From positions 1-31,841 of IMG/VR virus record IMGVR_UViG_2558860161_000007: a stretch of DNA of 31,841 nt. One strand, 5' to 3'. The translations under genes were made by a program, and so were the position numbers. This document shows positions 12,356 through 31,841 of this stretch, piece by piece. Each line of letters begins with the position of its first letter. Position 1 is the first letter of the stretch. The stretch is from a virus (Duplodnaviria > Heunggongvirae > Uroviricota > Caudoviricetes). The notes below the pieces were generated by a model, which saw only the letters and a program-made list of their open reading frames with translations, searched no databases and had not been told where the DNA came from.

Positions 12356-12694
12356 TCAGCAGACGGCATATACACCATCAAATCCAACAGAAGGCACCTT
12401 CTTTGATGCTACTTCATTGCTACGACGCTGGATCACCTTTGCAATACTTTTTAAAATTGAAGGGGATGCATTGCGAACCTTTACCTGGCTCAAAACTTTG
12501 GTTACGCCGAATTTCACAACCAAAACACCAAAGATTTCATCAGAGTATGATTCTGAAATTGAATAAACGCCGCTCAAATCCAAATCAACAAAGTTCCCCT
12601 CATTGATGAGAACTTCAATCTTGTGCCGTTGGGGGATAGCCTGATTGCGCGAAGCCAGGTCACCCTCGGGCAACTTGTATGCAATTTTATTCAT
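12356..12694 (-). CDS. Small STAS-like (anti-sigma-factor-antagonist-like) protein; second gene of a two-gene cargo operon
   Basis: 112-aa ORF; segment FVDLDLSGVYSISESYSDEIFGVLVVKFG resembles the STAS/SpoIIAA-type core; AGGAGG Shine-Dalgarno inside the end of the upstream gene, and its start overlaps that gene's stop. Confidence 0.55.
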   Translation of the reverse strand: MNKIAYKLPEGDLASRNQAIPQRHKIEVLINEGNFVDLDLSGVYSISESYSDEIFGVLVVKFGVTKVLSQVKVRNASPSILKSIAKVIQRRSNEVASKKVPSVGFDGVYAVC

Positions 12695-16984: not shown

Positions 16985-17838
16985 ACACGCACCTCGTACA
17001 CAGCAGAACTATCCACGCCACACGAAGGATCAAATCCCACCCAGCAGCGCGCCCCGGAAACAGCAATGATTTCTGTTGCAGATTTACTCTCGCCAGCCGA
17101 CACGCCGATGCTGCGTTTTGCCTTGATGTAGTGGTGAGTGAAATTTCGATACAGCGAACGGATCAGGGATGTGTCACTGTTAGAAACAATGACTGGATGA
17201 CCTTCTGATGATCGATATTCAAGAACAGATGCCAGGTGATACTGGTCATCTTCAGTGAAGCCGTTAGTGTGATAGCCGGAAAACGTACCGTCATAAGGCG
17301 GATCGCAATACACCACATCCCCCACCTGCAGCATCGCCAGCGTTTCATCAAAGCTGGCGCAGATAAACGTTGCTTGCTGGGCTTTCTCTGCAAATGCGCG
17401 AATTTCTTTTTCAGGGAAATACGGATTTTTATAATTACCGTATGGAATGTTGAAATGCCCGCTCTTGTTATAACGACATAACCCACGGTAACCATGACGA
17501 TTGAGATACAGGAAATATACCGCTTTCATGAAATCAGTAATTTCAGTGGAGTAATTAAACTCCTGCCTTATGTTGTAATAAGCCAACTCCCTGTTTGCTT
17601 CCTCAAATAAAGCTCTGGCACGAGATATAAACGCCTCGCAATCAGCAGCAACCTTTTTATAGAGGTTGATTAAATCAGGATTAATATCCGCAACAAGATA
17701 GCTGGGGTAATCCGTCTCCATCATCACAGCACAGGAACCCGCGAAAGGTTCAACCAGTCGCGGGCCAGCAGGAAGGTGTTTTTTCAGTTCGGACATTACG
17801 GCGGTTTTATTTCCCGCCCATTTCAGGATGGTGCTCAT
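16981..17838 (-). CDS. dam: DNA adenine methyltransferase (Dam-like, N6-adenine)
   Basis: ILKWAGNK N-terminal motif, FAGS motif ([10 protein letters not shown]) and catalytic DPPY; likely start is [11 protein letters not shown] at ~17838 (ORF track 17898). Confidence 0.85.
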
Positions 17839-18062
17839 ACAGCACCCCCGTTGTAATGTTTGCCTTTCAGCTCTGCGATTTCCTGACAGGTAATGCAAAG
17901 CTGCACACCCGGAATGGCACGGCGGCGTGCTGGCGGAATTGGCGCTTCACACTCAACGCAAAGCACGCGGGACACGCCCGGCGTTTTGGCACGGGCAGCA
18001 CGGATATGGCGCTGGCGTTCTTCTTCAACGCGCTGCTGTACGAGATCCATTGCATCAGCCAT
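17835..18062 (-). CDS. TraR/DksA-family C4 zinc-finger protein
   Basis: 75-aa ORF with CVECEAPIP...CITCQ (four-Cys finger), typical of phage TraR-like proteins; overlaps the dam start. Confidence 0.7.
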   Translation of the reverse strand: MADAMDLVQQRVEEERQRHIRAARAKTPGVSRVLCVECEAPIPPARRRAIPGVQLCITCQEIAELKGKHYNGGAV

Positions 18063-18301
18063 TAGTGGATCTCCTGCGCTTCGTTCTGGATTGCTTCAGC
18101 AGTCACACGCAGCAGTTCTGCCGCTTCCACGTGGTTTAGCTGACGGGATGAGATATGACACGCCAGGCTATCAAGGCGAGCTGCCATTGCTTCAGCCCTT
18201 GCCCGGCGTTCTTCCAGACGAGCCTCTGTCAGTAAAATATTAAGCCCTGCGTCATCCGGTCCGGTTTTGGTCGAGAGAGTTTCAATATTACGCATAATCA
18301 A
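18062..18301 (-). CDS. Hypothetical early-operon protein
   Basis: 79-aa ORF co-directional with and tightly packed in the early lytic operon. Confidence 0.45.
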   Translation of the reverse strand: MIMRNIETLSTKTGPDDAGLNILLTEARLEERRARAEAMAARLDSLACHISSRQLNHVEAAELLRVTAEAIQNEAQEIH

Positions 18302-18362
18302 TTCTCCTGAATTTAGATAAAGGGATGCCCGGCGGGTTTACGCCATTAATTTCATTAGTTGG

Positions 18363-18704
18363 TTAATTCGGCATGGTTAGCCGTCTGGGAAATAAGCTCA
18401 CCACTGCACGAAAATGATTCATTGCTTTAATCAACTCCCGCTTTTCGTCAGTGGTCAGCTCATTAATGCTGATGCTATGACGTTCAGCTGGAATTTTTGC
18501 CATAAAGAATATGGCAGCCAGTGCCCGTTTATTTTGTTCGCTATTAATATCCCGTGGATCACGCATATCTTTAATAAACCGTTCAAGCTCTGACTCAATA
18601 TTCAGACCAAAAACTTTCGCCCTTAACTCCGCAATGTGATTAAGTCCATTCAGGCGTTCACCGGGGCTTAATGGAACAGTCGCCGCAGCGCCTTCAATAG
18701 CCAT
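18363..18704 (-). CDS. Hypothetical early-operon protein
   Basis: 113-aa ORF in the early operon between the cII-like gene and dam. Confidence 0.45.
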   Translation of the reverse strand: MAIEGAAATVPLSPGERLNGLNHIAELRAKVFGLNIESELERFIKDMRDPRDINSEQNKRALAAIFFMAKIPAERHSISINELTTDEKRELIKAMNHFRAVVSLFPRRLTMPN

Positions 18705-18868
18705 TTGTTCCCCCGTTTCTTCGTAGATAGTTCTGCCAGCAATTCATCTTGTGAACGGCACGGATGCCAGCGTTTACCATCCTCACCCATGATCCAGCCG
18801 TGACCGTAGTGCATTGCCGGGCTTTGTTTAACAAGCAGCGATGCAAATGATGGTTCTTTCGTAAGCAT
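18668..18868 (-). CDS. Hypothetical small protein
   Basis: ORF 18668..18898 (GTG); more likely starts at the ATG (MLTKEPSF) at ~18868, preceded by GAGGTG. Confidence 0.4.
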   Translation of the reverse strand: MLTKEPSFASLLVKQSPAMHYGHGWIMGEDGKRWHPCRSQDELLAELSTKKRGNKWLLKALRRLFH

Positions 18869-18875
18869 AAGCACC

Positions 18876-19385
18876 TCACAGCAAACCGAATGAAGCACCG
18901 AGGCCAGTCACGGTATCAACTGCACTCGCCATCGCAGGGTTAGCCTGTAAACGGGCCTGCAATGAAACAGCAGTCAGCGCCATCAGTCGTGTTACAGAGT
19001 TAATGCTGCTGATAGCATCACGACGACCTGCACTGGTTTTTACATCGCCAGATACCGCACCTGCAGCAACACGCCCGATCTCTGCGGTTGCACTCATGAC
19101 GTAATGTGGCAGTTTCTCTTTTGCCACCTCATTAATTGGTACGCATGGCAGGCAGTGAATCTGTGCCAGAAAGCCATCTACCAGCGTTGAATCTTCAGTC
19201 AGATCGGTAAGCAACCAGATTTCTGGCGCTGTGAGCTGATGCGGTTGATCTGGGTTGAGTTTGTTTCGCAGTGTCTGAACATTCATTCCTGCACGTTCTG
19301 CCAGCTTCGCCATATTGTGGCGTAGTGCAAAAGCTCTACAGGCTTCATCAAAATGCGGATGTTTGGAAATCTTGTAATCAAACAT
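18876..19385 (-). CDS. cII: CII-like lysogeny-establishment regulator (phage 186 CII family)
   Basis: 169-aa protein beginning MFDYKISKHPHFDEACRAFALRHN..., closely resembling 186 CII (also 169 aa); directly downstream of the Apl-like gene. Confidence 0.75.
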   Translation of the reverse strand: MFDYKISKHPHFDEACRAFALRHNMAKLAERAGMNVQTLRNKLNPDQPHQLTAPEIWLLTDLTEDSTLVDGFLAQIHCLPCVPINEVAKEKLPHYVMSATAEIGRVAAGAVSGDVKTSAGRRDAISSINSVTRLMALTAVSLQARLQANPAMASAVDTVTGLGASFGLL

Positions 19386-19417
19386 GCTGCCCCCTTAGAA
19401 AGTTCTCATAATTGAAC

Positions 19418-19666
19418 TTAGCCACCAACGATGACATTAAAATTGAAATTGGATTGGCCCATGTTTTTCCTGACTTGTTCCTTTTTGTACTCAAGGTAAC
19501 GTATACATACTCTGTCTTTCGGTTTTTCCTTTTTTTCCAAGAACTTAGCGAGCTTACCATTATGAATCATTTGATATACCGAACCGCGAGAGCGGCCTTC
19601 CCATTCCGCGAACTCTGCAGGTGTCGCCATCACTTTTGGTACACGAATTGAAATGTCGTTGCTCAT
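19418..19666 (-). CDS. apl: Apl/Cox-like excisionase and transcriptional regulator (HTH)
   Basis: 82-aa basic protein, first gene of the lytic operon, divergent from the repressor gene. Confidence 0.7.
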   Translation of the reverse strand: MSNDISIRVPKVMATPAEFAEWEGRSRGSVYQMIHNGKLAKFLEKKEKPKDRVCIRYLEYKKEQVRKNMGQSNFNFNVIVGG

Positions 19667-19721
19667 AGTGCAGTATCTCTCGATTAAGGTTTGGTTTATG
19701 TCGTTTTATCTTGTTTTATTA

Positions 19722-19773
19722 GATTCAATATTTGATACATCGAGATACTACGATCCAATATTTGATACGTCAA
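19722..19773. promoter_or_regulatory. Two direct repeats (caatatttgatac) in the repressor/lytic divergent promoter region; candidate operator sites
   Basis: ttcaatatttgatacatc and tccaatatttgatacgtc, ~30 bp apart, between the apl and cI starts. Confidence 0.4.
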
Positions 19774-19785
19774 CAGGATTAAGAA

Positions 19786-20418
19786 ATGATACAGGTAAAA
19801 GCTGGCGAGAATACAGGGGGAAGAGAGGCTATCCATAGACTAATGGCAGCCTATGATTTCAAGTCCAGACAGCAACTTTGCGATCACTTAGGCGCATCAA
19901 AAAGCACTATGGCAAACAGATACTTAAGAGATAGCTTTCCCGCAGAGTGGGTGATTCAGTGCGCCTTGGAAACAGGAGTTTCTTTACTGTGGCTAACCAC
20001 CGGACAAGGCGAACCAGGTTCAAACATTGACCCTAAAAAAAATATCAATTCTGTGAACTCCAGCAGGGTTAAACCTCTTTCTGAGCTTGTATCTCCTGAA
20101 ATTGACAAGGCAACTCTCAACGGTGGTTTATTGGTCGATGCTGGAAAAGCAATCATTGATAGCAGCATACTCCCCTCAGACTCAAGCAACCTGCTGCTGG
20201 TGAGTACTTCTGGTGATTCTTATTTAATAGATCGCAACCAAACACCACCAGTAAATGGTACGTGGTTAGTGGACATCGACGGGATAAAAAGCATTGTAAA
20301 ATTGACACGACTCCCGGGAAACAGATTAGTAGTGCATCAGGATGATTCATCGTTTGAGTGCGAACTGGATGACATTGAGGTAATAGGTCGCGCACTGAAA
20401 ATCATTAAGAGCCTTTGA
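19786..20418 (+). CDS. cI: CI-like immunity repressor
   Basis: 210-aa ORF upstream of and co-directional with int, divergent from apl; the N-terminal region looks like an HTH. Confidence 0.75.
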   Translation: MIQVKAGENTGGREAIHRLMAAYDFKSRQQLCDHLGASKSTMANRYLRDSFPAEWVIQCALETGVSLLWLTTGQGEPGSNIDPKKNINSVNSSRVKPLSELVSPEIDKATLNGGLLVDAGKAIIDSSILPSDSSNLLLVSTSGDSYLIDRNQTPPVNGTWLVDIDGIKSIVKLTRLPGNRLVVHQDDSSFECELDDIEVIGRALKIIKSL

Positions 20419-20419
20419 T

Positions 20420-21445
20420 ATGACCATCAGAAAACAGCCGAACGGAAAGTGGTTATGTGAATGCTACCCAAACGGGAGAGATGGCAAACGCGTACGCAAA
20501 CAATTTGCGACGAAAGGCGAAGCCATTGCGTTTGAGAATTTCACCATGGATGAGGTAAACAAGAAACCTTGGCTGGGAGAAAAGGAAGATCGGCGACAAC
20601 TGTCAGAAGTGATTGAGCAATGGTATTCCCTGTACGGTCAGACACTCGCTGACCCTAAGCGATTAATGGCTAAGTTAAAAATCATTTGTAATGGACTTGG
20701 CGATCCCATCGCTTCTGAATTGACAGCAGGTGATTTCACAAAGTACCGGGAAGCCAGATTAAAAGGTGAGGTCAAAAACGAAGATGGCGTGCTCATGTCA
20801 CCGGTTAAGCCCAGAACGGTGAACCTTGAACAGCGTAACCTATCCTCAGTTTTTGGCACACTGAAAAAGCTGGGACATTGGTCTGCACCCAACCCCCTCG
20901 CCGGTCTGCCAACTTTCAAAATTGCAGAAGGTGAACTGGCGTTCCTTGCTGCTGATGAAATCAAACGCCTGCTTGACGCATGTGCTGAATCTCAAAGTCC
21001 CAGTCTGCTAATGATTGCCAAGATTTGCCTGGCTACCGGGGCAAGATGGAGCGAAGCCGAAAACCTGCAAGGTAACCAGATATCAAAGTATCGAATTACC
21101 TATACCAAAACAAAAGGAAAGAAAAACCGAACTGTTCCTATTTCTCAGGAACTGTATGAAGAATTACCCAAAAACAGAGGAAAGTTATTCACACCATGCC
21201 GAAAGGCTTTTGAGCGTGCGGTAAAACGAGCTGGAATTGAACTACCTGAAGGTCAATGTACCCACGTTCTGCGCCACACTTTCGCCAGTCACTTTATGAT
21301 GAACGGCGGAAACATTTTGGTATTGAGGGATATTTTAGGACACGCTGATATTAAAATGACCATGATTTATGCCCATTTTGCACCGGATCATCTGGAAGAT
21401 GCCGTTACCAAAAATCCACTTCATAACCTCAACTGGCATCGCTAA
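20420..21445 (+). CDS. int: Tyrosine integrase (P2/186 family)
   Basis: 341-aa ORF; C-terminal catalytic region HVLRHTFASHF...LGHADIKMTMIYAH with the conserved R, H-x-x-R and Y; adjacent to the att core. Confidence 0.9.
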   Translation: MTIRKQPNGKWLCECYPNGRDGKRVRKQFATKGEAIAFENFTMDEVNKKPWLGEKEDRRQLSEVIEQWYSLYGQTLADPKRLMAKLKIICNGLGDPIASELTAGDFTKYREARLKGEVKNEDGVLMSPVKPRTVNLEQRNLSSVFGTLKKLGHWSAPNPLAGLPTFKIAEGELAFLAADEIKRLLDACAESQSPSLLMIAKICLATGARWSEAENLQGNQISKYRITYTKTKGKKNRTVPISQELYEELPKNRGKLFTPCRKAFERAVKRAGIELPEGQCTHVLRHTFASHFMMNGGNILVLRDILGHADIKMTMIYAHFAPDHLEDAVTKNPLHNLNWHR

Positions 21446-21562
21446 TAAATGGCGGCATTTTGGCGGCAGAACACTAAAAACAAGTAAAACAAGCAAATAC
21501 AGACTAACACTAACACAATGATTTAAAATAAAAAAATATGATTTTGTTAGTATAAAAATGGT

Positions 21563-21607
21563 ATGTAGGAATTTCGGACGCGGGTTCAACTCCCGCCAGC
21601 TCCACCA
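21563..21607 (+). other. ssrA: Attachment-site core identical in character to the 3' end of tmRNA (ssrA), ending ...GGTTCAACTCCCGCCAGCTCCACCA
   Basis: The ~45-nt atgtaggaatttcggacgcgggttcaactcccgccagctccacca matches my recollection of the enterobacterial tmRNA 3' terminus; upstream is AT-rich phage DNA and the int stop, so only a 3' fragment is present. Confidence 0.65.
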
Positions 21608-21642
21608 AATAATGATCCGGATGTGTCCGGTGAAGTACAGAA

Positions 21643-21677
21643 AGCCCGCATGGCACAAGCCCTGCGGGCTTTTTTGT
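21643..21677 (+). terminator. Rho-independent terminator (likely the native ssrA terminator)
   Basis: Perfect stem agcccgca / tgcgggct with a 12-nt loop, followed by TTTTTTG. Confidence 0.6.
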
Positions 21678-21720
21678 GTCTGTCGTTGTCCGAGGGCATC
21701 CGGCTAAATCCAGTGTTTAT

Positions 21721-21770
21721 TGGTATACGTTTTGGTATACGGTAGGATGTATACCTAAAAGCGTATACCA
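21721..21770. promoter_or_regulatory. Cluster of four GTATAC palindromes upstream of the satellite integrase; candidate regulator or arm-type binding sites
   Basis: tggtatacg, tggtatacgg, atgtatacct and gcgtatacca within 50 bp, read directly. Confidence 0.3.
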
Positions 21771-21791
21771 ATTCATGAAGGAGCGGCCACA

Positions 21792-22991
21792 GTGGCACGG
21801 ACAACTCGCCCCCTAACCAACACCGAAGTTCTGCGCGCGAAAGCGTTAGAGAAGGATCTAACGCTGCATGATGGTGATGGGCTTTTCCTGATAGTGAAAA
21901 CTAGCGGCAAGAAACTCTGGCGCTTTCGCTATCAACGCCCAGCAACAAAACAACGGACTATGATGGGACTTGGTGCTTTTCCTGCCCTTTCTCTTGCTGA
22001 TGCCCGAGGGTTAAGAGCAGATTACCTTGCCCTATTAGCCAACGGAATCGACCCGCAAATTCAAGCTGAAGTTGCAGAGGAACAGCAGCAAATCGCTCTG
22101 GACAGTATTTTTTCGACGGTCGCCGCTAACTGGTTCCAGCTCAAAAGCAAAAGCGTTACCCCTGATTACGCTAAAGATATATGGCGTTCACTGGAAAAAG
22201 ACGTATTTCCAGCTATCGGTGAGACCCCTGTCCAGCAAATCAAAGCCCGAACACTGGTTGAAGCCCTTGAACCGATCAAAGCACGTGGGGCGCTGGAGAC
22301 AGTTCGTAGACTGGTACAGCGTATCAACGAAATAATGATTTATGCGGTTAACACTGGCTTGATTGATGCCAACCCCGCATCAGGTATTGGTATGGCTTTT
22401 GAGAAACCCAAAAAGCAAAACATGCCGACGTTGCGACCAGAAGAATTGCCTAAGCTGATGCGTTCGCTAGTCATGTCAAATCTATCTGTTCCGACTCGCT
22501 GTCTTATTGAGTGGCAACTCCTGACGCTCGTGCGCCCTTCTGAGGCTTCAGGTGCTCGATGGGCTGAGATCGATCTCAATGCCAAACTCTGGACAATTCC
22601 AGCCGAACGAATGAAAGCTAAACGTGAACATATAGTACCTCTATCTACACAGGCGTTAGAGATTCTAGAAGTGATGAAGCCAATCAGTGCTCATCGCGAA
22701 CATGTTTTTCCGAGCAGGAACGACCCCAAAAAATCAATGAACAGCCAAACGGCAAACGCTGCCTTAAAACGCATAGGCTATGGAGGTAAGCTTGTTGCTC
22801 ATGGTCTACGTTCTATAGCGAGTACAGCTCTTAATGAAAATGGTTTTAATCCAGATGTAATTGAAGCAGCATTAGCACATTCGGATAAGAATGAAGTAAG
22901 ACGTGCATATAATCGTTCTACCTATTTAGAACAACGTCATGAGTTAATGAATTGGTGGGGTTGTAAAGTTTGCCCTACCAATTCATTATAA
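21792..22991 (+). CDS. int: Tyrosine integrase (P4/CP4-57 family) of the satellite element
   Basis: 399-aa ORF (GTG start); N-terminal arm-binding-type region (GDGLFLIV...KLWRFRY) and C-terminal catalytic region (AHGLRS...ALAHSDKNEVRRAYNRSTY). Confidence 0.9.
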   Translation: MARTTRPLTNTEVLRAKALEKDLTLHDGDGLFLIVKTSGKKLWRFRYQRPATKQRTMMGLGAFPALSLADARGLRADYLALLANGIDPQIQAEVAEEQQQIALDSIFSTVAANWFQLKSKSVTPDYAKDIWRSLEKDVFPAIGETPVQQIKARTLVEALEPIKARGALETVRRLVQRINEIMIYAVNTGLIDANPASGIGMAFEKPKKQNMPTLRPEELPKLMRSLVMSNLSVPTRCLIEWQLLTLVRPSEASGARWAEIDLNAKLWTIPAERMKAKREHIVPLSTQALEILEVMKPISAHREHVFPSRNDPKKSMNSQTANAALKRIGYGGKLVAHGLRSIASTALNENGFNPDVIEAALAHSDKNEVRRAYNRSTYLEQRHELMNWWGCKVCPTNSL

Positions 22992-23002
22992 GATAAAACA
23001 GA

Positions 23003-24421
23003 TCATACTTTACCGGGGTATGTTTTAAACATACTCCTTAATACGTCAAATGTCTGTTCACCTATGATTGAAAATTCTTTAATCATTTCCATTAAGTTAT
23101 TTCGGCTAATCAAGAAAATATACAAACCTTGATCTTTCGATATTTCTTTCACTCTATCAAGATACTTTTCCTCGGCAGAATTTTCGCAGAATATTAAACC
23201 TATCTTAGAATTACATTCTTCGACTTTTCTAAGTGTAGTATAAATATGTTCCTCGTTCAATTTATGCTGAGGATCAATGACATTTACAACTATCAACTCT
23301 GAAATAATGTTGTACACTGAAAAATCGAAAAAGAAACCTTTCTTAGCCTCATTAATTAATGAAAAGAGGCAGCACTGTTCATCCTCACTTATTAATTTGG
23401 GGTAAAACAAGCTAGGATAGAAGATTGAAATCAATATTTTCTTGTATGCTTTAGTGTAATTACTAAAGTCGTTGTTTTTAATTGATAAATCAATATCTTT
23501 CATTAGATCTTTTATGGGGAGAATTACAGGATCTTCATCCTTATCAAAATCACTATGCGCTAGAGGATTCGGAGGATTAATCTCCAGCTCTTTTTTATAT
23601 TCTTTCAAGGTGTTAGGGTATTTTACGAGCTGAGACTCGATAAATCCCTTAGTCTGACCATACTCATCAATGATACTTGTTGTGGTAACAATCCGCTCCC
23701 CTTTAAGCACTTTAACTAATGCCGAGCCAGAGCTTATCAATTCCTTTTTCATTTCCGGAATAATATGCCTCCGATATAAATCCCTATGTGAATAGATTAT
23801 CTCTTCACGTGCAAGTATCTTAGGAATAAGGATAATCTCCTCGCCTTCATAAACAGGGAGATGAAAACGATTTTTATGCCATTTACTACTAACCTTATCC
23901 CACGTTTTGACTTCTGAAACCTCTTTAGTCTCAATGCCGTAAAATATACAAATATCCTTTGTATATTCTATAAAAAAACCTTTGAGAATATTACAAACTG
24001 AATCCGATATTCGGTCAGAACCAATACCTGGGATAGTCAGAGCTGTATCTTCTAGATCAGTTAATATTCCTGATTTTGCAGCCTGACTACTCTTTAGAGA
24101 ATCCAAAATATCTTCAGCAGTTTTTTCACCAAGAGCAGTTCCGGATGATTCTTTTGTTGAATATCCTAAATGAAAGGCATTGGTCTCTCTTAGTGATGAC
24201 AATAAATAAGCAGCTTTTTTAAAATTATTATTCTTTATAGACGCCATTATTTCTGTAAAATAGTCTTGTAACGCGTAAACTAAATCCTGCCCCCATTGGG
24301 ATTTTAAAACCTTTATAGATGTTGGATCTAAAAAAAACCTTAAATCAGTATGCAGAGGAATATCCAAAAAATCTAACGCTACTTGTCTGCCTTCAACTCC
24401 AAAAGCCTCTGAAAACCTCAT
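23003..24421 (-). CDS. Hypothetical AT-rich cargo protein (~472 aa) in the satellite int-cos hotspot
   Basis: ORF 23003..24448; likely start is the ATG at ~24421 with a GGAG Shine-Dalgarno. GC is markedly lower than its neighbours, it is convergent with int, and I recognise no domain by eye. Confidence 0.55.
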   Translation of the reverse strand: MRFSEAFGVEGRQVALDFLDIPLHTDLRFFLDPTSIKVLKSQWGQDLVYALQDYFTEIMASIKNNNFKKAAYLLSSLRETNAFHLGYSTKESSGTALGEKTAEDILDSLKSSQAAKSGILTDLEDTALTIPGIGSDRISDSVCNILKGFFIEYTKDICIFYGIETKEVSEVKTWDKVSSKWHKNRFHLPVYEGEEIILIPKILAREEIIYSHRDLYRRHIIPEMKKELISSGSALVKVLKGERIVTTTSIIDEYGQTKGFIESQLVKYPNTLKEYKKELEINPPNPLAHSDFDKDEDPVILPIKDLMKDIDLSIKNNDFSNYTKAYKKILISIFYPSLFYPKLISEDEQCCLFSLINEAKKGFFFDFSVYNIISELIVVNVIDPQHKLNEEHIYTTLRKVEECNSKIGLIFCENSAEEKYLDRVKEISKDQGLYIFLISRNNLMEMIKEFSIIGEQTFDVLRSMFKTYPGKV

Positions 24422-24566
24422 GTAACACTCCTTTACAATAATCAACATAAAAACAAGAGCATTCTTATTTTTATAGCAAAGGTGGTTTAATCACAAGATC
24501 TTATGAATTGAGCAACAATAATTATCCCTATTTTTTGAAGCTGACGAACATTTCACGTTGCGTACA

Positions 24567-24640
24567 GAGCTTTCCCCGCCTCGCCTGCACGCCTCGTGGG
24601 TCTGTTTTAATGCAGTTGCTTTGCGAGGCTCAGGCTGCCA
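24567..24640. repeat. cos-like repeat copy 1 (P2-type variant)
   Basis: Reverse complement reads GGCGAGGCGGGGAAAGCTC; homologous to copy 2 and to the helper cos-like region. Confidence 0.5.
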
Positions 24641-24877
24641 CAGACTCGAATACGTCAAGGGAATAGCAGCTTTAGAAGCGACGTAATGAACGCCAGAATG
24701 ACTAGTTTCCTCCACCGCCGGGCGGCCTTTTCTTGCACTTCTCCTGACCACCTCAGGGCTCTCCACGCCCTCGAACAGCACCGCACCACCCACCGACACT
24801 CCCGAGAACCCGCGCAGTACAGCGACGCACTCAGGCCGCGAAATTAAATATAATTAAATACTTTACCGCTGGCGCGC

Positions 24878-24960
24878 AATGCTCTCCCCGCCACGCCTGC
24901 CCGCTTCCCGGGGCGCTTTTAATGCAGGTGCATGAAGAGGCTCAGGCCGCGCCAGTGCTG
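24878..24960. repeat. cos-like repeat copy 2 (variant closest to the resident helper)
   Basis: Reverse complement reads GGCGTGGCGGGGAGAGCAT; the flank (ctgcccgctt...ttttaatgcaggtgcatga) aligns with the helper region at 13761..13815. Confidence 0.5.
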
Positions 24961-25061
24961 GTGCGACAGAGTGTGGAAAATTCAGGGTTTTGCATGCAAA
25001 GCCATGCAGCGTAGGCATGCATGGCTATTTTTATTAAAAAGACGGGTATTTTCGGGGCGTT

Positions 25062-25637
25062 TTATGCGGATTTTTTGCGGGTCTGCGCGGCCTGTCGGCG
25101 CATGAAAATCTGACTCTGTTCAGGCGTATATTTTGCCCGGTTGTCGTCTCTCGATGCTCTGTCAGGCCGGAAACCGATGGTTGTCAGAATGTCGCGATCA
25201 TCCTCTGCGTAATCAATATTTCCTCCGCGGGTTACATAAACGGACAGCGCTTCGCGAACACTGGCGGCCGCCCGGTCGAGAGCACGTTCTCTGACAATGT
25301 CAGGTTGTTCGCTGAGATGCATTAATTCCGGTGCCAGTGCGGCGGCCAGCGCGTCGCCGCTTACCTGCATAAAGGCGTGGAGCTGACACCGGATACTGAT
25401 ACGCTGCACGGCCTCATGTGACCGGATGTACTGCCCGGCCGACTGATTTACCGCCCATTTTTTCAGGTCAATATCATCCCGCAGCGCCTGTGCGGCCTCC
25501 GGTTCATAACGGGTGCAGGTCAGCTCCAGCTCCTTCAGCGCCATTTCTGCCCGCGCCAGTGCTGACTTGCTGCTCATCCAGTCCGATTTATTCTTCTGAC
25601 AGGTTTCAAAGGCCTGTTCCAGTAGTGCTCGTGCCAT
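25062..25637 (-). CDS. psu: Psu-like polarity suppression / capsid decoration protein
   Basis: 191-aa ORF; conserved AGQYIRSHEAVQ.ISIR and ILTTIGFRPD segments, as I recall for P4 Psu (190 aa). Confidence 0.8.
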   Translation of the reverse strand: MARALLEQAFETCQKNKSDWMSSKSALARAEMALKELELTCTRYEPEAAQALRDDIDLKKWAVNQSAGQYIRSHEAVQRISIRCQLHAFMQVSGDALAAALAPELMHLSEQPDIVRERALDRAAASVREALSVYVTRGGNIDYAEDDRDILTTIGFRPDRASRDDNRAKYTPEQSQIFMRRQAAQTRKKSA

Positions 25638-25653
25638 TGTCTTTTCTCCTGAA

Positions 25654-25896
25654 TCAGTGGCGCAGCGATGACCGGGCGCAGTCCAGAATTCGGGGCGGTG
25701 TTTCTGGTACTGTTTGTGGTGGTTCGGGCTTTTCTTCTGCCGGTGGCCGTATCACCTCGTCGATAGACTCGGTGGTGCGAAAGGTTGCGGAGCAAAAGAC
25801 ATTCACGCACTGGAGGTAGCTCTGTTTGACGTTATCTGACAGGTAACGGCTGGTACGGACATGGGCAGCCTGTTTGCAGTACGGGCAGCGCATCAT
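25654..25896 (-). CDS. delta: Delta/Ogr-family zinc-finger late transcription activator
   Basis: 80-aa ORF starting MMRCPYC with CPYC...C..C..CSATF, the hallmark of Ogr/Delta. Confidence 0.85.
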   Translation of the reverse strand: MMRCPYCKQAAHVRTSRYLSDNVKQSYLQCVNVFCSATFRTTESIDEVIRPPAEEKPEPPQTVPETPPRILDCARSSLRH

Positions 25897-26696
25897 GGCT
25901 TAACCCCCCGCGTTTTTTTCTTCTGTGCCAGCTCTTTAGCCCGCGCCATTCTGAGAACAGGGCTTTTATAGAGTTTCATATCCACGCCGGTGAGTGCCGG
26001 ACGGTGAAGCCCAATTTTTGAAATTACTGGTTCATGCTCCATGTTGAATGTGTAGTACCTGCTTTGCGCCAGTACATTCTCACCCAGCTCCTGAATGAGA
26101 ACGTTGTGAGGGTGTTCTTCTCCCTTAATCTCGAGCTCACGCAGACGTAACGCAAATGCGCGCACCAGTGAGGGAGGGATGTCTTTCATCACGGTCGCCC
26201 ACTCATTCCGGGAGTAGGCAGAGAACACCGTAAAATGCGTGCCGACGTACTTATCTCCTGATGTACAGGCGGACAGCATGGTACTGGCCTTATCATCGTT
26301 GAGTTCATCAATCAGGGCGGTGAATTCCTCCGCCAGCTCCCGACCGGCCACTCGCTGACTGTGTTCGGCTTTCAGTTCCGGGGTCATCATGCCGCGCAGT
26401 TCGCGAAAACGGGTACGCCAGTTCTGTTCGGCTTCGGCACTTTCATTCAGGGCGTTCTGACGCTCTTTCTCACTGCGGGCAATGGCCGCATCAATATCAT
26501 TCAGCTTCAGCATGTTTTCCGTGTGCGCGGATTTGGCCTTGCTGAACACATCAAGAGCGTTATTTATCGTGGCCTCGGCGTTCTGGTTTGCTTTCTCGTT
26601 AAGGGTATCCAGTGCGCTGTCAATGGCCGTGCGGATGTTCTCATCCTGCGTGCTGCCGATGGTTTTCATTACTGCGGTAAACAAATCTGGTTTCAT
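25893..26696 (-). CDS. sid: Sid-like capsid size determination protein (putative)
   Basis: 267-aa helical/charged protein in the sid position of the psu-delta-sid operon; assigned by synteny and character, not strong sequence recall. Confidence 0.5.
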   Translation of the reverse strand: MKPDLFTAVMKTIGSTQDENIRTAIDSALDTLNEKANQNAEATINNALDVFSKAKSAHTENMLKLNDIDAAIARSEKERQNALNESAEAEQNWRTRFRELRGMMTPELKAEHSQRVAGRELAEEFTALIDELNDDKASTMLSACTSGDKYVGTHFTVFSAYSRNEWATVMKDIPPSLVRAFALRLRELEIKGEEHPHNVLIQELGENVLAQSRYYTFNMEHEPVISKIGLHRPALTGVDMKLYKSPVLRMARAKELAQKKKTRGVKP

Positions 26697-26770
26697 CGTC
26701 GGGTTCTCTCTGTGTTTTCAACCTGACGCCATTCTGCCGTCCCTCAGACAACAACTCGATTCATTGCCGT

Positions 26771-26788
26771 TGTAGCAGACATGGCACA
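26771..26788. promoter_or_regulatory. TGT-N12-ACA dyad upstream of the sid operon (candidate Psid activator site)
   Basis: tgtagcagacatggcaca, ~83 bp upstream of the sid-like start. Confidence 0.4.
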
Positions 26789-26864
26789 AACAGGACTTAA
26801 AAACCCGGCTGGCCAGAGAAAGGTCGCAGGAAACCCCCTCTCTCTGTTTGTTTTTTTACATATA

Positions 26865-26970
26865 ACTATTCACTACTGTTCACTCAGAATAAAAATATAA
26901 GTAAAACAATAAATTAAAGAGTGAACAGTTGAGAGGGAAGTGTTCACCAACTGTTCACTACTGTTCACTG
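26865..26970. promoter_or_regulatory. Cluster of CTGTTCAC repeats (five or more copies, both orientations) in the satellite divergent regulatory region
   Basis: ctattcactactgttcactcag ... gagtgaacagttgag ... tgttcaccaactgttcactactgttcactgg, read directly. Confidence 0.35.
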
Positions 26971-27247
26971 GTCTGAACATCCCGAATGTAAATTTTATGC
27001 GGTATGTCCTATTAATTCATGCTGTTAGGGTGATTAAATCAATTTGCATTTCACTTTTGAAATCTCCAGTGCCTTATAACTCCTTCCAGTGCCTTTAAAT
27101 GGTCTTGAGTAAAAAAACAGCACCCGTTGTCCCGTGCTTTGTACAATTTCCCCCTGTTGCATTGAGAAAAAATATTCACAAAATAGAGCGCTACCTGATA
27201 CCGGACGGACACGTCCGGATCTCTGCGGATATTAACGAGGTAGCGTT

Positions 27248-27514
27248 ATGCACACAGTTTCATCAGTACCATCGTCCCCCACAACCGCGCACCTGATGCC
27301 GGTTTCAGCCCCGGCTCAGGAACGTTTTTTACGTCTCCCGGAAGTCATTCATCAGTGCGGTCTGTCCCGCTCCACGCTCTACGATTTAATTGCCCGCAAT
27401 GCTTTCCCGGCGCAGGTTTCCCTCGGGGGTAAAAATGTCGCCTGGCTGCAGTCTGAAATCACAGCGTGGATGGCAGAACGTGTCGCGCACCGCAACCGGA
27501 AATACGACGCATGA
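27248..27514 (+). CDS. AlpA/Vis-family HTH transcriptional regulator
   Basis: 88-aa ORF containing [29 protein letters not shown], the AlpA-type helix-turn-helix; GAGG Shine-Dalgarno upstream. Confidence 0.7.
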
Positions 27515-27549
27515 ATCAGAGCCGATTTCACAAAGCCCCTTTTTCTGGC

Positions 27550-27665
27550 TTGCATCCGTTGTGTGTTTCCTGGTACAGTTTTGTCGCTGTCGCAAAATCG
27601 ACAGCCGGGCGTGGAAACCCGAGCAACTCGAAGGCGACACCAGACGCGCCATGCGTCTTTTTTTG
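27550..27665 (+). ncRNA. Candidate small structured RNA (promoter-hairpin-terminator unit) in the satellite immunity-region position
   Basis: TTGCAT-18 bp-TACAGT promoter-like hexamers, hairpin gctgtcg-caaaat-cgacagc, then stem agacgc-gccat-gcgtct followed by TTTTTTT; the long overlapping ORFs here lack convincing starts. Confidence 0.3.
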
Positions 27666-27912
27666 TGTCGCAACTAACGCCACAGAGCGCCAGATAATGG
27701 CGTGGTGTGCGGATCGTCGTGCAGACGTCACTTTGTGTCTCCTGTCCGCAATCGCATATCATGCTGTCATGTCAATGGTAGCTCAGGCGGGGCAGCCCTC
27801 GGGCTGGCCGGTATTCTTCGAGGCCGGTATTTCCACCCCCGTCTGGGCTATCGCCACTGAGCGTGGAAACTCCGGCGATAGCAATAATTTGCTACTCGAA
27901 GGAGGTTGCCTT

Positions 27913-28110
27913 ATGGCTACGACCCTCACTCCGTCTCACCCGCAGTTTGTCTTTGTGTTTGCCGCCGTCCGTCGCGCAGACCGTAAGCCCCGTATCTGTA
28001 TGCTCCGCACCGTTGCCGGTGACGAGCTGGCCGCCCGCCGCACCCTTGTCCGCGAATACGTGCTTTCCCTTGCCGCCCGTCTGCCGGTTCTGGAGGTGTC
28101 ACATGCATAA
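27913..28110 (+). CDS. Hypothetical small protein (65 aa)
   Basis: ATG preceded by a GGAGG Shine-Dalgarno (gaaggaggttgccttATG); terminates with an overlap on the next start. Confidence 0.45.
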
Positions 28111-28402
28111 TAAAAATACCCCTCAGACCGTCTCAGCGCGTCGTGATGACCTTAACCCCATGAAGGAACACCTCAGCATAGAGGCGTACCATAAACTCAA
28201 TCGCGCCAGCGCCGTCTCACAGTTCGTGGGAGGAGATTTGCTGCGCCGTGAACTGAACGGTTTACACCAGCTATACCTGCCGCAGATTTTTAGTTATATC
28301 CATGAGGACGTCAGCTACGTCCTGGAAGAGCTGAAAGCCAAAGGCCTGTGCCGTGACTTTCTCGCCACGACGTCGGGAAACGGAGGTGAGCACCATGTTT
28401 GA
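28103..28402 (+). CDS. Hypothetical protein (99 aa)
   Basis: ATG (MHNKNTPQ...) preceded by GGAGGTG; lies within the longer 27863..28402 track ORF. Confidence 0.5.
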
Positions 28403-28844
28403 TTTCCCTCAGCCGGGTGAAACATATCGCTGTACAGGATTTCCTGATGTGGTGGTGTCGGGCGTGCTGGCCGACGGTATTCCGTGGGATATGCCGTACC
28501 GCTGTCCGGGGCTGGTCTGGAACCCGTACCGGCGCACCTACACCATCCTCATTCGTATTATTGCCGGTGGCAGCATGGCAGAAATTCCGCTCGGTCGTTT
28601 TTTGCGGGACTTTACCTGTGAGCATCCCGACGTATTTAAACGTAACCCTGAAAACCGCCACGCCGTATTACGCGAAATAGCGGCCGACCCGGCATTACAG
28701 CAATACCGGGCGCGGAATATCGATAACTATCCTGACGATATTCCCCCGGTTAAACGTCCGGCGCCGGTGGCGCATAAATGGCGGAATAATTTCAGACCGG
28801 AAACGGAAATAAAACCGGATAACAGCTACCGCCATTATCTGTAA
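28395..28844 (+). CDS. Hypothetical protein (149 aa)
   Basis: ATG ([11 protein letters not shown]...) preceded by GGAGGTGAGC; overlaps the previous stop. Confidence 0.5.
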   Translation: MFDFPQPGETYRCTGFPDVVVSGVLADGIPWDMPYRCPGLVWNPYRRTYTILIRIIAGGSMAEIPLGRFLRDFTCEHPDVFKRNPENRHAVLREIAADPALQQYRARNIDNYPDDIPPVKRPAPVAHKWRNNFRPETEIKPDNSYRHYL

Positions 28845-28915
28845 TTAAAAACGACACCCAAAAATAAAATGTGCGTATCTGCGCAGGGATACGCACGTCC
28901 TCAGGAGACGAAATA

Positions 28916-29176
28916 ATGCCTGTTAACAGTACGGAACGGCCGCAGAATACAAACCAGCCCATCATCAGCCGGGCAGACCTTGAATGTCTCGAACATATGC
29001 GCAACGTCGGCCAGCTCGTCGGCGACCTGATGCAGGTGCAGGACTGCACCTCTTTGCGCCACAACCCGGCGCAGCAACTACAGCTCACCTCGGTGATTTA
29101 CCTCATGACTGCCCGGCTCGACGGCGTGGTCGACCGCTGTAATCAGCGCTGGCTGACCGGGGAGGGCAACGTATGA
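28916..29176 (+). CDS. Hypothetical protein (86 aa)
   Basis: ATG (MPVNSTERP...) preceded by AGGAGA; a perfect hairpin gtgcgtatc-N8-gatacgcac lies just upstream. Confidence 0.45.
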
Positions 29177-29493
29177 AAAAGCCATTAACGCCCGTCTTAC
29201 GCGCCGCGCTCTATCGCCGTGCGGTCGCCTGTGCCTGGCTGACCCTGTGCGAAAGTCAGCACCGCTACCCGCAGCTCACGCTCAGTACGCTGGAAAGCGC
29301 CATTGCGACCGAGCTGGAGGGCTTCTACCTGCGCCAGCACGGCGAGGAAAAAGGCCGCCAGATTGCCTGTGCCCTGCTCGAAGATTTAATGGAAGCCGGA
29401 CCACTCAAGGCCGCCCCGTCGCTGTCCTTTCTCGGGCTGGCCGTGATGGATGAACTCTGCGCCCGCCATATCACCGCACCGGTACTGCACTGA
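29173..29493 (+). CDS. Hypothetical protein (106 aa)
   Basis: Start overlaps the previous stop (ATGA); immediately upstream of the primase gene. Confidence 0.5.
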
Positions 29494-29507
29494 GGGAGAA
29501 AATAACG

Positions 29508-31841
29508 ATGAAAATGAACGTAACGGACACCGTAAAACAGGCGTGCGGCCACTGGCCGCGCATTCTCCCTGCGCTGGGTGTAACGGTCATCAAAAACCGC
29601 CATCAGGCCTGTCCGGTGTGTGGCGGCTCCGACCGCTTTCGCTTTGATGATAAAGAGGGACGCGGGACGTGGTTCTGCAATCAGTGCGGCGCGGGTGACG
29701 GGCTTAAGCTGGTAGAAAAAGTGTTCGGCGTGACCCCGTCAGAGGCCGCCGGGAAGGTGAACGCCGTGACCGGCAACCTGCCGCCGGTTTCCCCGGCGGT
29801 GACTGCGGCCGCAGACGCTGAAACAGAGGCAGACCGCAAAGCGGCGGCCGCGCTGGCCGTAAAACTGACGGAGAAAGCCCGACCGGTCACCGGCAACGCC
29901 TACCTCACCCGCAAGGGCTTCCCCGGCCGGGAATGCCTGACGCTCACCGCCCTGCACAAAACCGGCGGTGTGACGTACCGCGCCGGGGATGTGGTTGTCC
30001 CGCTTTATGATGATAGCGGCGCACTGGTTAACGTCCAGCTCATTAACGCGGACGGTCTCAAGCGCACCCTGAAAGGCGGTCAGGTAAAAGGGGCATGTCA
30101 TATTCTCGACGGAAAAAAAGAGGCGGGAAAGCGGCTGTGGATAGCGGAGGGCTACGCGACCGCGCTCACCGTGCATCACCTGACCGGCGAAACCGTCATG
30201 GTGGCGCTGTCGTCGGTGAACCTCCTTTCTCTGGCGAGCCTTGCCCGTCACACATACCCGGCCTGCCGGATTGTGCTGGCCGCCGACCGTGACCTCAGCG
30301 GCGACGGCCAGACCAAAGCGTCTGCGGCCGCAGAAGCCTGTGAGGGCGTGGTCGCCCTGCCGCCGGTGTTCGGTGACTGGAATGATGCGTATACACAGCA
30401 CGGCGGGGAGGCCACGCGTAAAGCCATGTATGACGCCATCCGGCCACCGGCTGACAGCCCTTTCTCTACCATGAGCGAGGCGGAGTTTACCGCCATGAGC
30501 ACCAGTGAGAAAGCCATGCGGGTGCATGAGCATTACGGCGAAGCGCTGGCGGTGGATGCGAACGGCCAGCTCCTGTCCCGTTATGAGGCGGGCATATGGA
30601 AAATCATTCCGCCGTCGGACTTTGCGCGCGACGTGGCCGGGCTGTTTCAGCGTCTGCGCGCCCCGTTCTCATCGGGAAAAATTGCCTCGGTGGTGGACAC
30701 CCTGAAACTGATTATTCCCCAGCAGGACGCCCCGCCACGGCGGCTGATTGGTTTTCGCAACGGGGTGCTCGATACCAAAAGCGGTATATTCAGCCCGCAC
30801 AGCAAAACGCACTGGCTGCGCACCCTGTGTGACGTGGATTTCACCCCGCCGGTGGAGGGGGAAACGCTGGAGACGCACGCGCCGAATTTCTGGCGCTGGC
30901 TCGACCGCGCCGCCGGTTCGCGTGCCGATAAACGTGACGTGATACTCGCCGCGCTGTTTATGGTGCTGGCGAACCGTTACGACTGGCAGCTCTTCCTCGA
31001 AGTGACCGGTCCCGGCGGCAGCGGGAAAAGTATTCTGGCCGAAATTGCGACCATGCTCGCCGGGGAAGATAACGCCACGTCGGCGACTATCGAGACGCTG
31101 GAATCCCCCCGCGAACGCGCGGCGCTGATTGGCTTCTCGCTGATACGTCTGCCTGACCAGGAGAAATGGAGCGGTGACGGGGCAGGACTCAAGGCCATCA
31201 CCGGCGGCGATGCGGTCTCCGTCGACCCGAAATACCGCGATGCATACTCCACCCATATTCCGGCGGTGATACTGGCCGTGAACAATAACCCGATGCGCTT
31301 CACCGACCGCAGCGGCGGGGTGTCCCGTCGCCGGGTGATAATGCACTTCCCGGAACAGATTGCCCCGGAAGAGCGTGACCCGAAGCTGAAAGATAAAATC
31401 GCCCGGGAGCTGGCCGTCATCGTGCGCCAGCTCATGCAGACGTTCAGCGACCCGATGACCGCGCGCACACTGCTCCAGTCGCAGCAGAACTCCGACGAGG
31501 CACTCAGCATCAAGCGCGACGCTGACCCGACATTCGATTTTTGTGGCTATCTGGAGGCACTGCCCGAGCCTGACGGTATGTATATGGGGAATGCGAATAT
31601 CATCCCGCGACAGCCGCGCCTGTACCTGTATCACGCCTATCTGGTCTACATGGAGGCGCACGGCTACAAGAACACACTCAGCCTGACCATGTTCGGCAAA
31701 GGACTGTCATCGATGCTGAAAGAGTACGGGCTGAATTACGGTAAGCGACGAACAAATCAGGGGATACAGACGAACCTTGCGCTCAGGGAGGAAAGCAACG
31801 CCGACTGGCTGCCCCGGTGCGATGAAACCACCGCGACATAA
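29508..31841 (+). CDS. alpha: Alpha-type primase/helicase (zinc-binding primase domain + TOPRIM-like + SF3-type P-loop NTPase)
   Basis: 777-aa ORF, the P4 alpha length as I recall it; N-terminal CPVCGG...CNQCG zinc motif; central acidic region LAADRDLSGDGQ; Walker A GPGGSGKS; stop at the window end. Confidence 0.9.
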   Translation: MKMNVTDTVKQACGHWPRILPALGVTVIKNRHQACPVCGGSDRFRFDDKEGRGTWFCNQCGAGDGLKLVEKVFGVTPSEAAGKVNAVTGNLPPVSPAVTAAADAETEADRKAAAALAVKLTEKARPVTGNAYLTRKGFPGRECLTLTALHKTGGVTYRAGDVVVPLYDDSGALVNVQLINADGLKRTLKGGQVKGACHILDGKKEAGKRLWIAEGYATALTVHHLTGETVMVALSSVNLLSLASLARHTYPACRIVLAADRDLSGDGQTKASAAAEACEGVVALPPVFGDWNDAYTQHGGEATRKAMYDAIRPPADSPFSTMSEAEFTAMSTSEKAMRVHEHYGEALAVDANGQLLSRYEAGIWKIIPPSDFARDVAGLFQRLRAPFSSGKIASVVDTLKLIIPQQDAPPRRLIGFRNGVLDTKSGIFSPHSKTHWLRTLCDVDFTPPVEGETLETHAPNFWRWLDRAAGSRADKRDVILAALFMVLANRYDWQLFLEVTGPGGSGKSILAEIATMLAGEDNATSATIETLESPRERAALIGFSLIRLPDQEKWSGDGAGLKAITGGDAVSVDPKYRDAYSTHIPAVILAVNNNPMRFTDRSGGVSRRRVIMHFPEQIAPEERDPKLKDKIARELAVIVRQLMQTFSDPMTARTLLQSQQNSDEALSIKRDADPTFDFCGYLEALPEPDGMYMGNANIIPRQPRLYLYHAYLVYMEAHGYKNTLSLTMFGKGLSSMLKEYGLNYGKRRTNQGIQTNLALREESNADWLPRCDETTAT

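Follow-up and report, generated by a model that had tools for sequence, protein, structure and literature searches.

Tandem insertion of a Fels-2-type prophage and a P4-like satellite at the 3' end of the tmRNA gene

Does a P4-like satellite that lies end to end with a P2-family prophage stand there because the two elements work together, or because each of them is drawn to the same gene? The locus that raises this question is the virus record IMGVR_UViG_2558860161_000007 (IMG/VR), whose 31,841 nucleotides are called the window in their entirety here. In the window, the integrase end of a prophage (the "helper") meets a fragment of ssrA, the gene of transfer-messenger RNA (tmRNA), and a satellite with an integrase of its own begins within that fragment. 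We find that two unrelated tyrosine integrases very probably inserted their elements independently at the 3' end of the tmRNA gene, and that the elements are neighbors owing to this shared target gene and not as a helper-satellite pair. The tandem insertion is real but ordinary, as it is already known in kind and closed public genomes show the same layout. The features that make up the junction are the following.

1-21562, no strand assigned: right-hand ~21.5 kb of a Fels-2/186-type P2-family prophage, the helper, recognized from Pfam, PHROG, and gene order
20420-21445, plus strand: helper tyrosine integrase of the Fels-2/P2 type, 341 amino acids (aa), with Int_N and Phage_integrase domains
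21446-21562, plus strand: integrase-proximal arm of the helper attP, now in the helper attR, recognized by homology to the Fels-2 attP
21563-21607, plus strand: displaced 3'-terminal 45 nt of ssrA (T-arm, acceptor 3' strand, and CCA)
21594-21609, plus strand: putative satellite attL core, CGCCAGCTCCACCA(AA), nested inside the 45-nt block of the helper
21608-21675, plus strand: satellite-borne substitute ssrA trailer, identical in all satellite copies
21722-21769, no strand assigned: presumed arm-type binding sites of the satellite integrase, four GGTATAC motifs
21792-22991, plus strand: satellite tyrosine integrase of the CP4-57 IntA/P4 type, 399 aa, with Arm-DNA-bind_3, Phage_int_M, and Phage_integrase domains

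The sequence at 21563-21607 on the plus strand, ATGTAGGAATTTCGGACGCGGGTTCAACTCCCGCCAGCTCCACCA, reproduces without mismatch the 3'-terminal 45 nt of enterobacterial ssrA. An initial annotation, made from the letters of the window, had noticed a match of about 45 nt to the tmRNA 3' terminus; the match proves to be exact, single copy in the window, and absent from all 100 shuffles. The 45-mer is identical to the 3' end of intact ssrA genes, annotated or called by ARAGORN, in E. coli and its relatives, and alignment with the intact gene puts the start of the identity exactly at 21563. It has the same orientation as ssrA and adjoins the helper integrase, in agreement with the Islander criterion for a displaced gene fragment. 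The window holds a fragment of ssrA only: ARAGORN calls no tmRNA gene in it, and the Rfam tmRNA model aligns confidently over its 3' part alone, with 45.9 bits, just under the gathering score of 47. By its sequence and position, the block would be the identity block of the helper attR. The junction shows, to the base, where the prophage ends on the right and where the satellite begins on the left. An open reading frame (ORF) that spans it on the minus strand (21335-21658) is unsupported and was treated as spurious. An Rfam match to IsrM at 21598-21675 (plus strand) does not denote an IsrM gene either, for it consists of 8 nt and the terminator, with 273 model positions skipped. IsrM is a small RNA of Salmonella islands, and the match suggests that the ends of IsrM derive from a junction of ssrA fragment and trailer like that at 21598-21675.

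The left element is identified by what lies between its integrase and the fragment. The integrase gene had been placed about 120 bp before the tmRNA match, and the distance from its stop codon measures 117 bp. Homology links this 117-bp arm with the annotated attP of Fels-2, with the corresponding sequences of SopEPhi, RE2010, and SEN8, and with the attP of Yersinia phage MLG42. Two TGGCGGCA repeats (21450-21457 and 21461-21468) lie in it ahead of an A+T-rich stretch; the motif recurs on the other arm of the helper, and the repeats are probably arm-type integrase sites. Taken together, the attP arm and the P2-type integrase identify the left element as an ssrA-integrating P2-family phage of the Fels-2 type. 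Past the ssrA core with its CCA, the MLG42 attP and the E. coli D3 attL read AATAA and then a terminator carried by the phage, AAGGGGTTACG...CCCCTTTTT. This terminator of the helper's own kind differs from the one at 21641-21675 in the window.

To which element, then, does the terminator in the window belong? The 68 nt at 21608-21675 contain a small hairpin (21617-21630) and an intrinsic terminator (21641-21675) composed of a hairpin and a T-run, as folding and a terminator scan indicate. From about 21608 rightward, all satellite copies share the same sequence no matter what precedes them, and the terminator is thus satellite DNA that supplies a substitute ssrA trailer. It differs from the native trailer in two contigs in which the satellite follows an intact ssrA (L005 and L007), where the native trailer and terminator have been displaced to the far end of the satellite, attR. 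The strong terminator and the P4-type integrase after it that the initial annotation described are both present on the plus strand (21641-21675 and from the GTG at 21792, with a GAAGGAG ribosome-binding site ahead of it), but the terminator has to be reassigned to the satellite. The integrase scores 594.8 bits against the NCBIfam model PRK09692 (cut-off, 434). Four of the five GGTATAC copies in the window fall within 48 bp (21722-21769), two direct and two inverted, and another pair lies on the opposite arm, near the right end of the satellite; they are presumed to be the arm-type sites of the satellite integrase. In P4, attP arm repeats are annotated at positions equivalent to those of the GGTATAC and TGGCGGCA motifs here.

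The satellite core was delimited by comparison of genomes. In Kluyvera (L017), only GCCAGCCCACCAA stands ahead of a related satellite that is 84% identical to the window from 21594 into the integrase gene. At the far end, six near-identical copies read CGCCAGC(-/C)(CA)CCAA and continue into chromosomal sequence or native trailer; this second core, seen in these six copies only, is degenerate, measures 11 to 14 nt, and lies about 320 bp beyond the window end. The Kluyvera sequence and the far-end core together delimit a satellite core of about 14 nt (21594-21607/9), inside the 45 nt of the helper. An empty site agrees with this: E. coli ET665 carries the same type of helper without the satellite and reads ...CCACCA followed directly by ATCATGATTGG, and the far end of the satellite in its E. 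coli copies joins this same ATCATGATTGG. Alignments of the satellite right end and the empty site thus give CGCCAGC..CCACCAA as the true core. A core within the terminator, prompted by terminator matches of 19 to 36 nt near the right end in L005 and L007, was rejected, as those matches are the displaced native ssrA trailer. In two copies in which the satellite is alone (L005 and L008), attR reads CGCCAGCCCACCA. That both elements used the ssrA 3' end, as the initial annotation proposed, is therefore supported, with the refinement that the two cores are nested, 45 nt for one and about 14 nt for the other.

Other genomes supply the parts of the arrangement that lie outside the window. In E. coli D3, the order is smpB, intact ssrA, a small ORF, ogr, D, tail and head genes, A, cI, and int, followed by two cargo genes, the 45-mer, the P4-type integrase, the satellite through alpha, the degenerate core, and ypjA. 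The prediction that an intact ssrA lies past the tail end of the prophage is borne out in this homologous layout, at the ogr/tail end, and in record CP019275, where ssrA is likewise beyond the tail end. The helper arm with the 45-mer occurs in 221 of 5,426 complete E. coli genomes, and in every record listed it is found in exactly two places, which fits one intact gene and one fragment. At least 16 of the 5,426 genomes contain the whole junction of helper arm, 45-mer, and satellite integrase, and 9 records among the matches listed run from helper genes through satellite alpha. None of the complete E. coli genomes covers more than 70% of positions 17000-31841, and an exact-pattern scan of species-representative genomes matched only one Kluyvera and one Tatumella contig. 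In loci reached through identical proteins, the 10-kb flank of the leftmost complete gene ends within gene D, some 1.5 kb before the place where attL is expected.

Both single-occupancy states are also observed. The exact helper integrase protein, present in 7,040 index blocks of the collection in contexts that include Salmonella-like and E. coli ones, occurs without the satellite, and what follows it downstream may be nothing, Salmonella fljBA/iro genes, a serine-recombinase island, or a P4-integrase island that is not a satellite (for example, L032). The satellite is 99.93 to 99.98% identical in six other contigs (2 to 7 single-nucleotide polymorphisms [SNPs] over 10.3 kb). Five of the six have it immediately downstream of an intact ssrA, in surroundings that comprise at least three different chromosomal flanks, and in the sixth (L003) it lies behind a different P2-type prophage that has a 343-aa integrase and an extra HNH gene. 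Since each element is found alone at ssrA or beside unrelated islands, their adjacency is a by-product of the shared target. In L005 and L007 the satellite differs from that in the window by 3 SNPs each, and the genes upstream of ssrA, a giant BapA-like adhesin in one case or a type I secretion ABC/HlyD pair, replace smpB; these contigs presumably come from other genera, and the near-identity points to a very recent spread between hosts.

Our results strongly favor a model in which the helper attP carries a copy of the last 45 to 50 nt of ssrA followed by its own terminator. Integration of the helper would rebuild an intact ssrA at its ogr/tail end, outside the window, and would push the 45 chromosomal nucleotides to its integrase end, where they now form 21563-21607. 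The satellite would recombine within the last ~14 nt (CGCCAGCTCCACCA) of the same sequence, bringing its own ssrA trailer and terminator (21608-21675) and leaving a short degenerate core ~320 bp past alpha; its right end in this genome is expected to read ATTCAGACTCCGCCAGC(C)(CA)CCAA and then chromosomal sequence. The 45-mer would be helper attR and satellite attL core at once. Each element would possess a complete att pair, an integrase, and an excisionase-type gene (apl in the helper, alpA in the satellite), and on these grounds the two would be expected to excise independently. Crossovers are placed within the cores, and each element is predicted to be competent for excision, by sequence comparison. 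The data fit either order of insertion, as both single-occupancy intermediates exist.

Several points weigh against this model. The tail half of the helper, from the tail fiber onward and including ogr, lies outside the window, as do the intact ssrA, the helper attL, and the satellite attR, all of which were read in homologous genomes only. The second core of the satellite is short and degenerate, with deletions of 1 to 4 nt, so that the satellite may excise inefficiently. The positions given for the crossovers are predictions from sequence comparison.

How do other explanations of the locus fare? That the 45-mer is a chance match, or that an assembly chimera has joined two unrelated contigs, has practically no probability left: the shuffled sequences speak against chance, the identical junction in closed E. 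coli chromosomes speaks against a chimera, and a combination of helper arm and 45-mer that recurs across 221 genomes is neither a coincidence nor an assembly artifact. It is also most improbable that only the helper is live and that the P4-like region is a fixed, decaying island of the CP4-57 type that was already downstream of ssrA. Such islands do exist, since ssrA in E. coli is commonly followed by a P4-integrase island and CP4-57 of K-12 is cryptic (PMC10107115), and the attR cores of the satellite are degenerate. Against this, all P4 core genes are intact and have P4-like lengths, with an alpha protein of 777 aa as in P4; its CI-RNA/C4 and isrK exceed the Rfam gathering scores; and copies that differ by only 2 to 7 SNPs over 10.3 kb yet occupy at least three chromosomal flanks bespeak recent mobility.

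The alternative that adjacency is functional, in the sense of a linked unit that is selected for and co-induced or co-mobilized through its physical linkage, is in our view very unlikely as well. One of two cos-like sites in the satellite shares an exact 22-mer and a 78-bp stretch of homology with the helper cos-like site, which makes the pair look packaging compatible; the satellite follows the helper in at least 16 E. coli genomes and in L003, and no case of this satellite in the reverse order turned up among the 5,426 genomes. Each element is nevertheless far more often found without the other, and the same helper integrase stands beside islands that are not satellites (L032). The integrases and att cores differ, so that no single recombinase would excise both, and a 35-kb helper plus an 11-kb satellite would exceed a P2-size capsid. 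The one-sided order, moreover, is explained by the nested cores. Cross-talk between P2 and P4 through Cox, epsilon, and delta/Ogr acts in trans and is independent of position. With such trans-acting cross-talk and with differing integrases and cores, linkage does not imply joint induction, and the statement in the initial annotation that adjacent elements "are inherited and induced together" does not follow from their adjacency, as each is found without the other. The satellite terminator, which lies between the cI-int transcription unit of the helper and the satellite integrase gene, would block read-through from one to the other.

Independent insertion at a shared target also accounts for the asymmetry in order, because the helper needs 45 nt, which the intact gene alone offers, whereas the P4-type integrase can use either copy. 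A search for the reverse order with a synthetic junction of satellite right arm and helper ogr arm gave no match in the 5,426 genomes at ≥80% coverage. It did reveal one case with a different P4-integrase island, in E. coli CAVP773 (L024, 13990-14030), where the scarred core (ATTCAGACTCCGCCAGCCCACCA) of an island bearing retron Ec67 is fused to the ogr-side arm of a Fels-2-type prophage that is degraded: an internal deletion brings gene D up against a cII remnant, and the attL of this helper is cut down to the scarred 13-nt core. We speculate, tentatively and with more doubt than confidence, that the order helper then satellite is more than incidental and may have been selected because the helper removes the cost to the host of satellite induction. 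The idea draws on two considerations: no other order leaves both elements their full att pairs, and this one puts the satellite attL on a dead fragment, where excision could no longer make a scar of the delta-T357 type that inactivates tmRNA in CP4-57-like layouts.

Beyond the junction, the helper has the parts of a P2-family phage (capsid, portal, terminase, and the GPA replication protein by Pfam and PHROG) and a switch of the 186 type, with CI (Phage_CI_repr and CI_C domains), CII/CP76, an Apl/Cox-like excisionase, and a DinI/Tum-like gene. From the left, its genes are a tail fiber cut by the window start, baseplate, lysis, head, and terminase/portal genes, and cargo, followed by cos, the DinI/Tum-like gene, A, dam, cII, apl, cI, and int. 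The order agrees with that of P2-family loci, with int, cI, apl, cII, A, cos, Q, P, O, and N running leftward and out of the window, and about 14 kb of the helper (tail genes, D, and ogr) lie beyond it. All helper genes inside the window look intact. At 94.6% identity, 92% of the helper aligns with Klebsiella P2-like prophage records and one E. coli record. Portal gene Q and the cos-like site at 13761-13779 flank a cos-proximal hotspot on the minus strand (12356-13790), in which lie a DUF4325/STAS-like gene (112 aa, with a weak DrmA-region match) and a 355-aa gene (phrog_3364). The same gene pair occupies the hotspot of the helper in E. coli D3, and it is a candidate for defense cargo.

The right element is, by its gene content, a complete P4-like satellite with every P4 core part. 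Past the integrase gene its features are as follows.

23003-24448, minus strand: hotspot cargo gene, 472-481 aa (DUF8370; phrog_27295; PADLOC candidate PDC-M36A, E = 2.8e-32)
24567-24897, minus strand: two cos-like sites in direct orientation, 312 bp apart, found by comparison with the 186 and P2/P4 cos
24897 down to 24879, minus strand: cos-A, GGCGTGGCGGGGAGAGCAT, matching phage 186 cos at 18/19 positions
24585 down to 24567, minus strand: cos-B, GGCGAGGCGGGGAAAGCTC, matching P2/P4 cos at 18/19 positions
25062-26696, minus strand: sid-delta-psu operon
25062-25637, minus strand: psu (Pfam Psu; 51% aa identity to P4)
25654-25896, minus strand: delta, short at 80 aa (Pfam Ogr_Delta; 42% aa identity to P4)
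25893-26696, minus strand: sid (29% aa identity to P4; RefSeq-named orthologue)
27248-31841, plus strand: early, immunity, and replication block, from Pfam, Rfam, and comparison with P4
27248-27514, plus strand: alpA/orf88 (Pfam Phage_AlpA)
27511-28110, plus strand: cI/Ash, containing isrK and C4/CI-RNA
27586-27663, plus strand: isrK (Rfam, 73.9 bits, above the gathering score)
27771-27858, plus strand: C4/CI-RNA (Rfam C4 antisense RNA, 76.1 bits, above the gathering score)
28103-28402, plus strand: epsilon (69% identical to P4 epsilon; PF25738 in identical copies)
28395-28844, plus strand: orf151, in the P4-like block
29173-29493, plus strand: orf106, from comparison with P4
29508-31841, plus strand: alpha primase-helicase, 777 aa (84% identical to P4 alpha and of the same length)

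The core set of de Sousa and Rocha (PMC8628076), namely int, psu, delta, sid, alpA, epsilon, and alpha, is present in the conserved order, together with a P2-family cos site and an immunity element of the CI-RNA type, by which P4-like satellites are recognized. Identity to P4 proteins ranges from 84 to 89% (alpha and orf106) down to 29 to 37% (sid and int). No NCBIfam or Pfam model matches Sid, which was identified through P4 and through an orthologue that RefSeq names "capsid size-determining scaffold Sid", in a satellite 96% identical over the matched segments (window 24901-31841). The location of isrK and C4 inside the cI/Ash ORF corresponds to the RNA immunity system of the P4 type, apparently intact. 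The cargo gene at 23003-24448 lies in the interval from int to cos, where P4 has its defense hotspot (PMC9122126), and it may be regarded as a predicted defense candidate.

The satellite at tRNA-Leu in E. coli E66 (L019, 2127-11855) is 96% identical in the matched psu-alpha segments and has a different, truncated integrase; an IS100 lies between its delta and sid, and RefSeq names its sid and epsilon orthologues. A near relative at another site with another integrase indicates that the integrase module sets the specificity for ssrA, and the case points by comparison of sequences to integrase-module swapping between the ssrA and leuX sites.

The ~70-nt regions around cos-A and cos-B are 78.6% identical to each other. 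It is cos-A that shares the exact 22-mer with the helper cos-like site (13767-13788), within the 78-bp homologous stretch. The paired sites could be the footprint of a cos-mediated exchange of cargo, as proposed for such elements (PMC9122126), or could reflect the use of two helper lineages. The shared cos sequence and the delta, sid, psu, and epsilon genes of the satellite make it plausible that the two elements can act as helper and satellite. A SNP inside the cos-A core is seen in copies L003 and L004, and an ORF over cos-B (24491-24799, minus strand) is unsupported and was treated as spurious.

Arrangements of this kind have been recorded before. Table 1 of PMC10107115, which cites Williams 2003, lists for the ssrA 3' end phages with a P2 integrase (Fels-2 and SopEPhi) and islands with a P4 integrase (CP4-57, Stm27X, and others), and Salmonella Typhimurium LT2 has Fels-2 and Stm27X both at ssrA (same table). 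The Islander study counted 125 tandem arrays, found the tmRNA gene to be the most enriched target, and treats tandem arrays at tRNA and tmRNA genes as routine (PMC4383910), and de Sousa and Rocha describe P4-like elements close to large prophages (PMC8628076). The present locus resembles LT2 in having P2-type and P4-type integrase elements at ssrA, each with its own integrase, and in the displaced fragment that marks the island boundary; it differs in that the P4-integrase element is a complete P4-like satellite rather than a generic island, with the LT2 layout taken from a secondary table. Fels-2, SopEPhi, RE2010, and SEN8 share with the helper an attP arm (77 to 83% identity), the integrase type, the 186-type regulatory genes, and an integrase-cI end that faces the displaced fragment. 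Overall the prophage is closest to Klebsiella and E. coli P2-like prophages (94.6%), not to Fels-2, and its cos-proximal cargo is different. The satellite is similar to P4 in order and content (int, hotspot, cos, psu-delta-sid, alpA, cI/CI-RNA, epsilon, and alpha), while P4 resides at leuX and its integrase is only 37% identical, and the element here has a short 80-aa delta and two cos-like sites instead of one. CP4-57 likewise has an integrase that targets the ssrA 3' end, and in some copies of the satellite the attR core lacks T357, as it does there (PMC10107115). In contrast to CP4-57, the element here is complete and abuts a dead ssrA fragment instead of a functional gene.

What the locus means for these elements is modest and concerns chiefly annotation: the boundaries of both elements are fixed and the terminator is assigned to the satellite. 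Prophage callers are likely to merge the two into one ~46-kb "prophage". When a satellite is alone at ssrA, excision of the P4 type can scar the gene by loss of T357 and turn trans-translation off (PMC10107115). The layout of that CP4-57-type rescue switch, an island abutting a functional ssrA, is not found in the window, where the island abuts the 45-nt fragment, but is present in the satellite-alone copies L005 and L008; excision of the satellite in the window would act on the dead fragment and, unlike that of CP4-57, would not switch off trans-translation. The locus is a clear example of why ssrA gathers elements in tandem, with different integrases that use nested cores.

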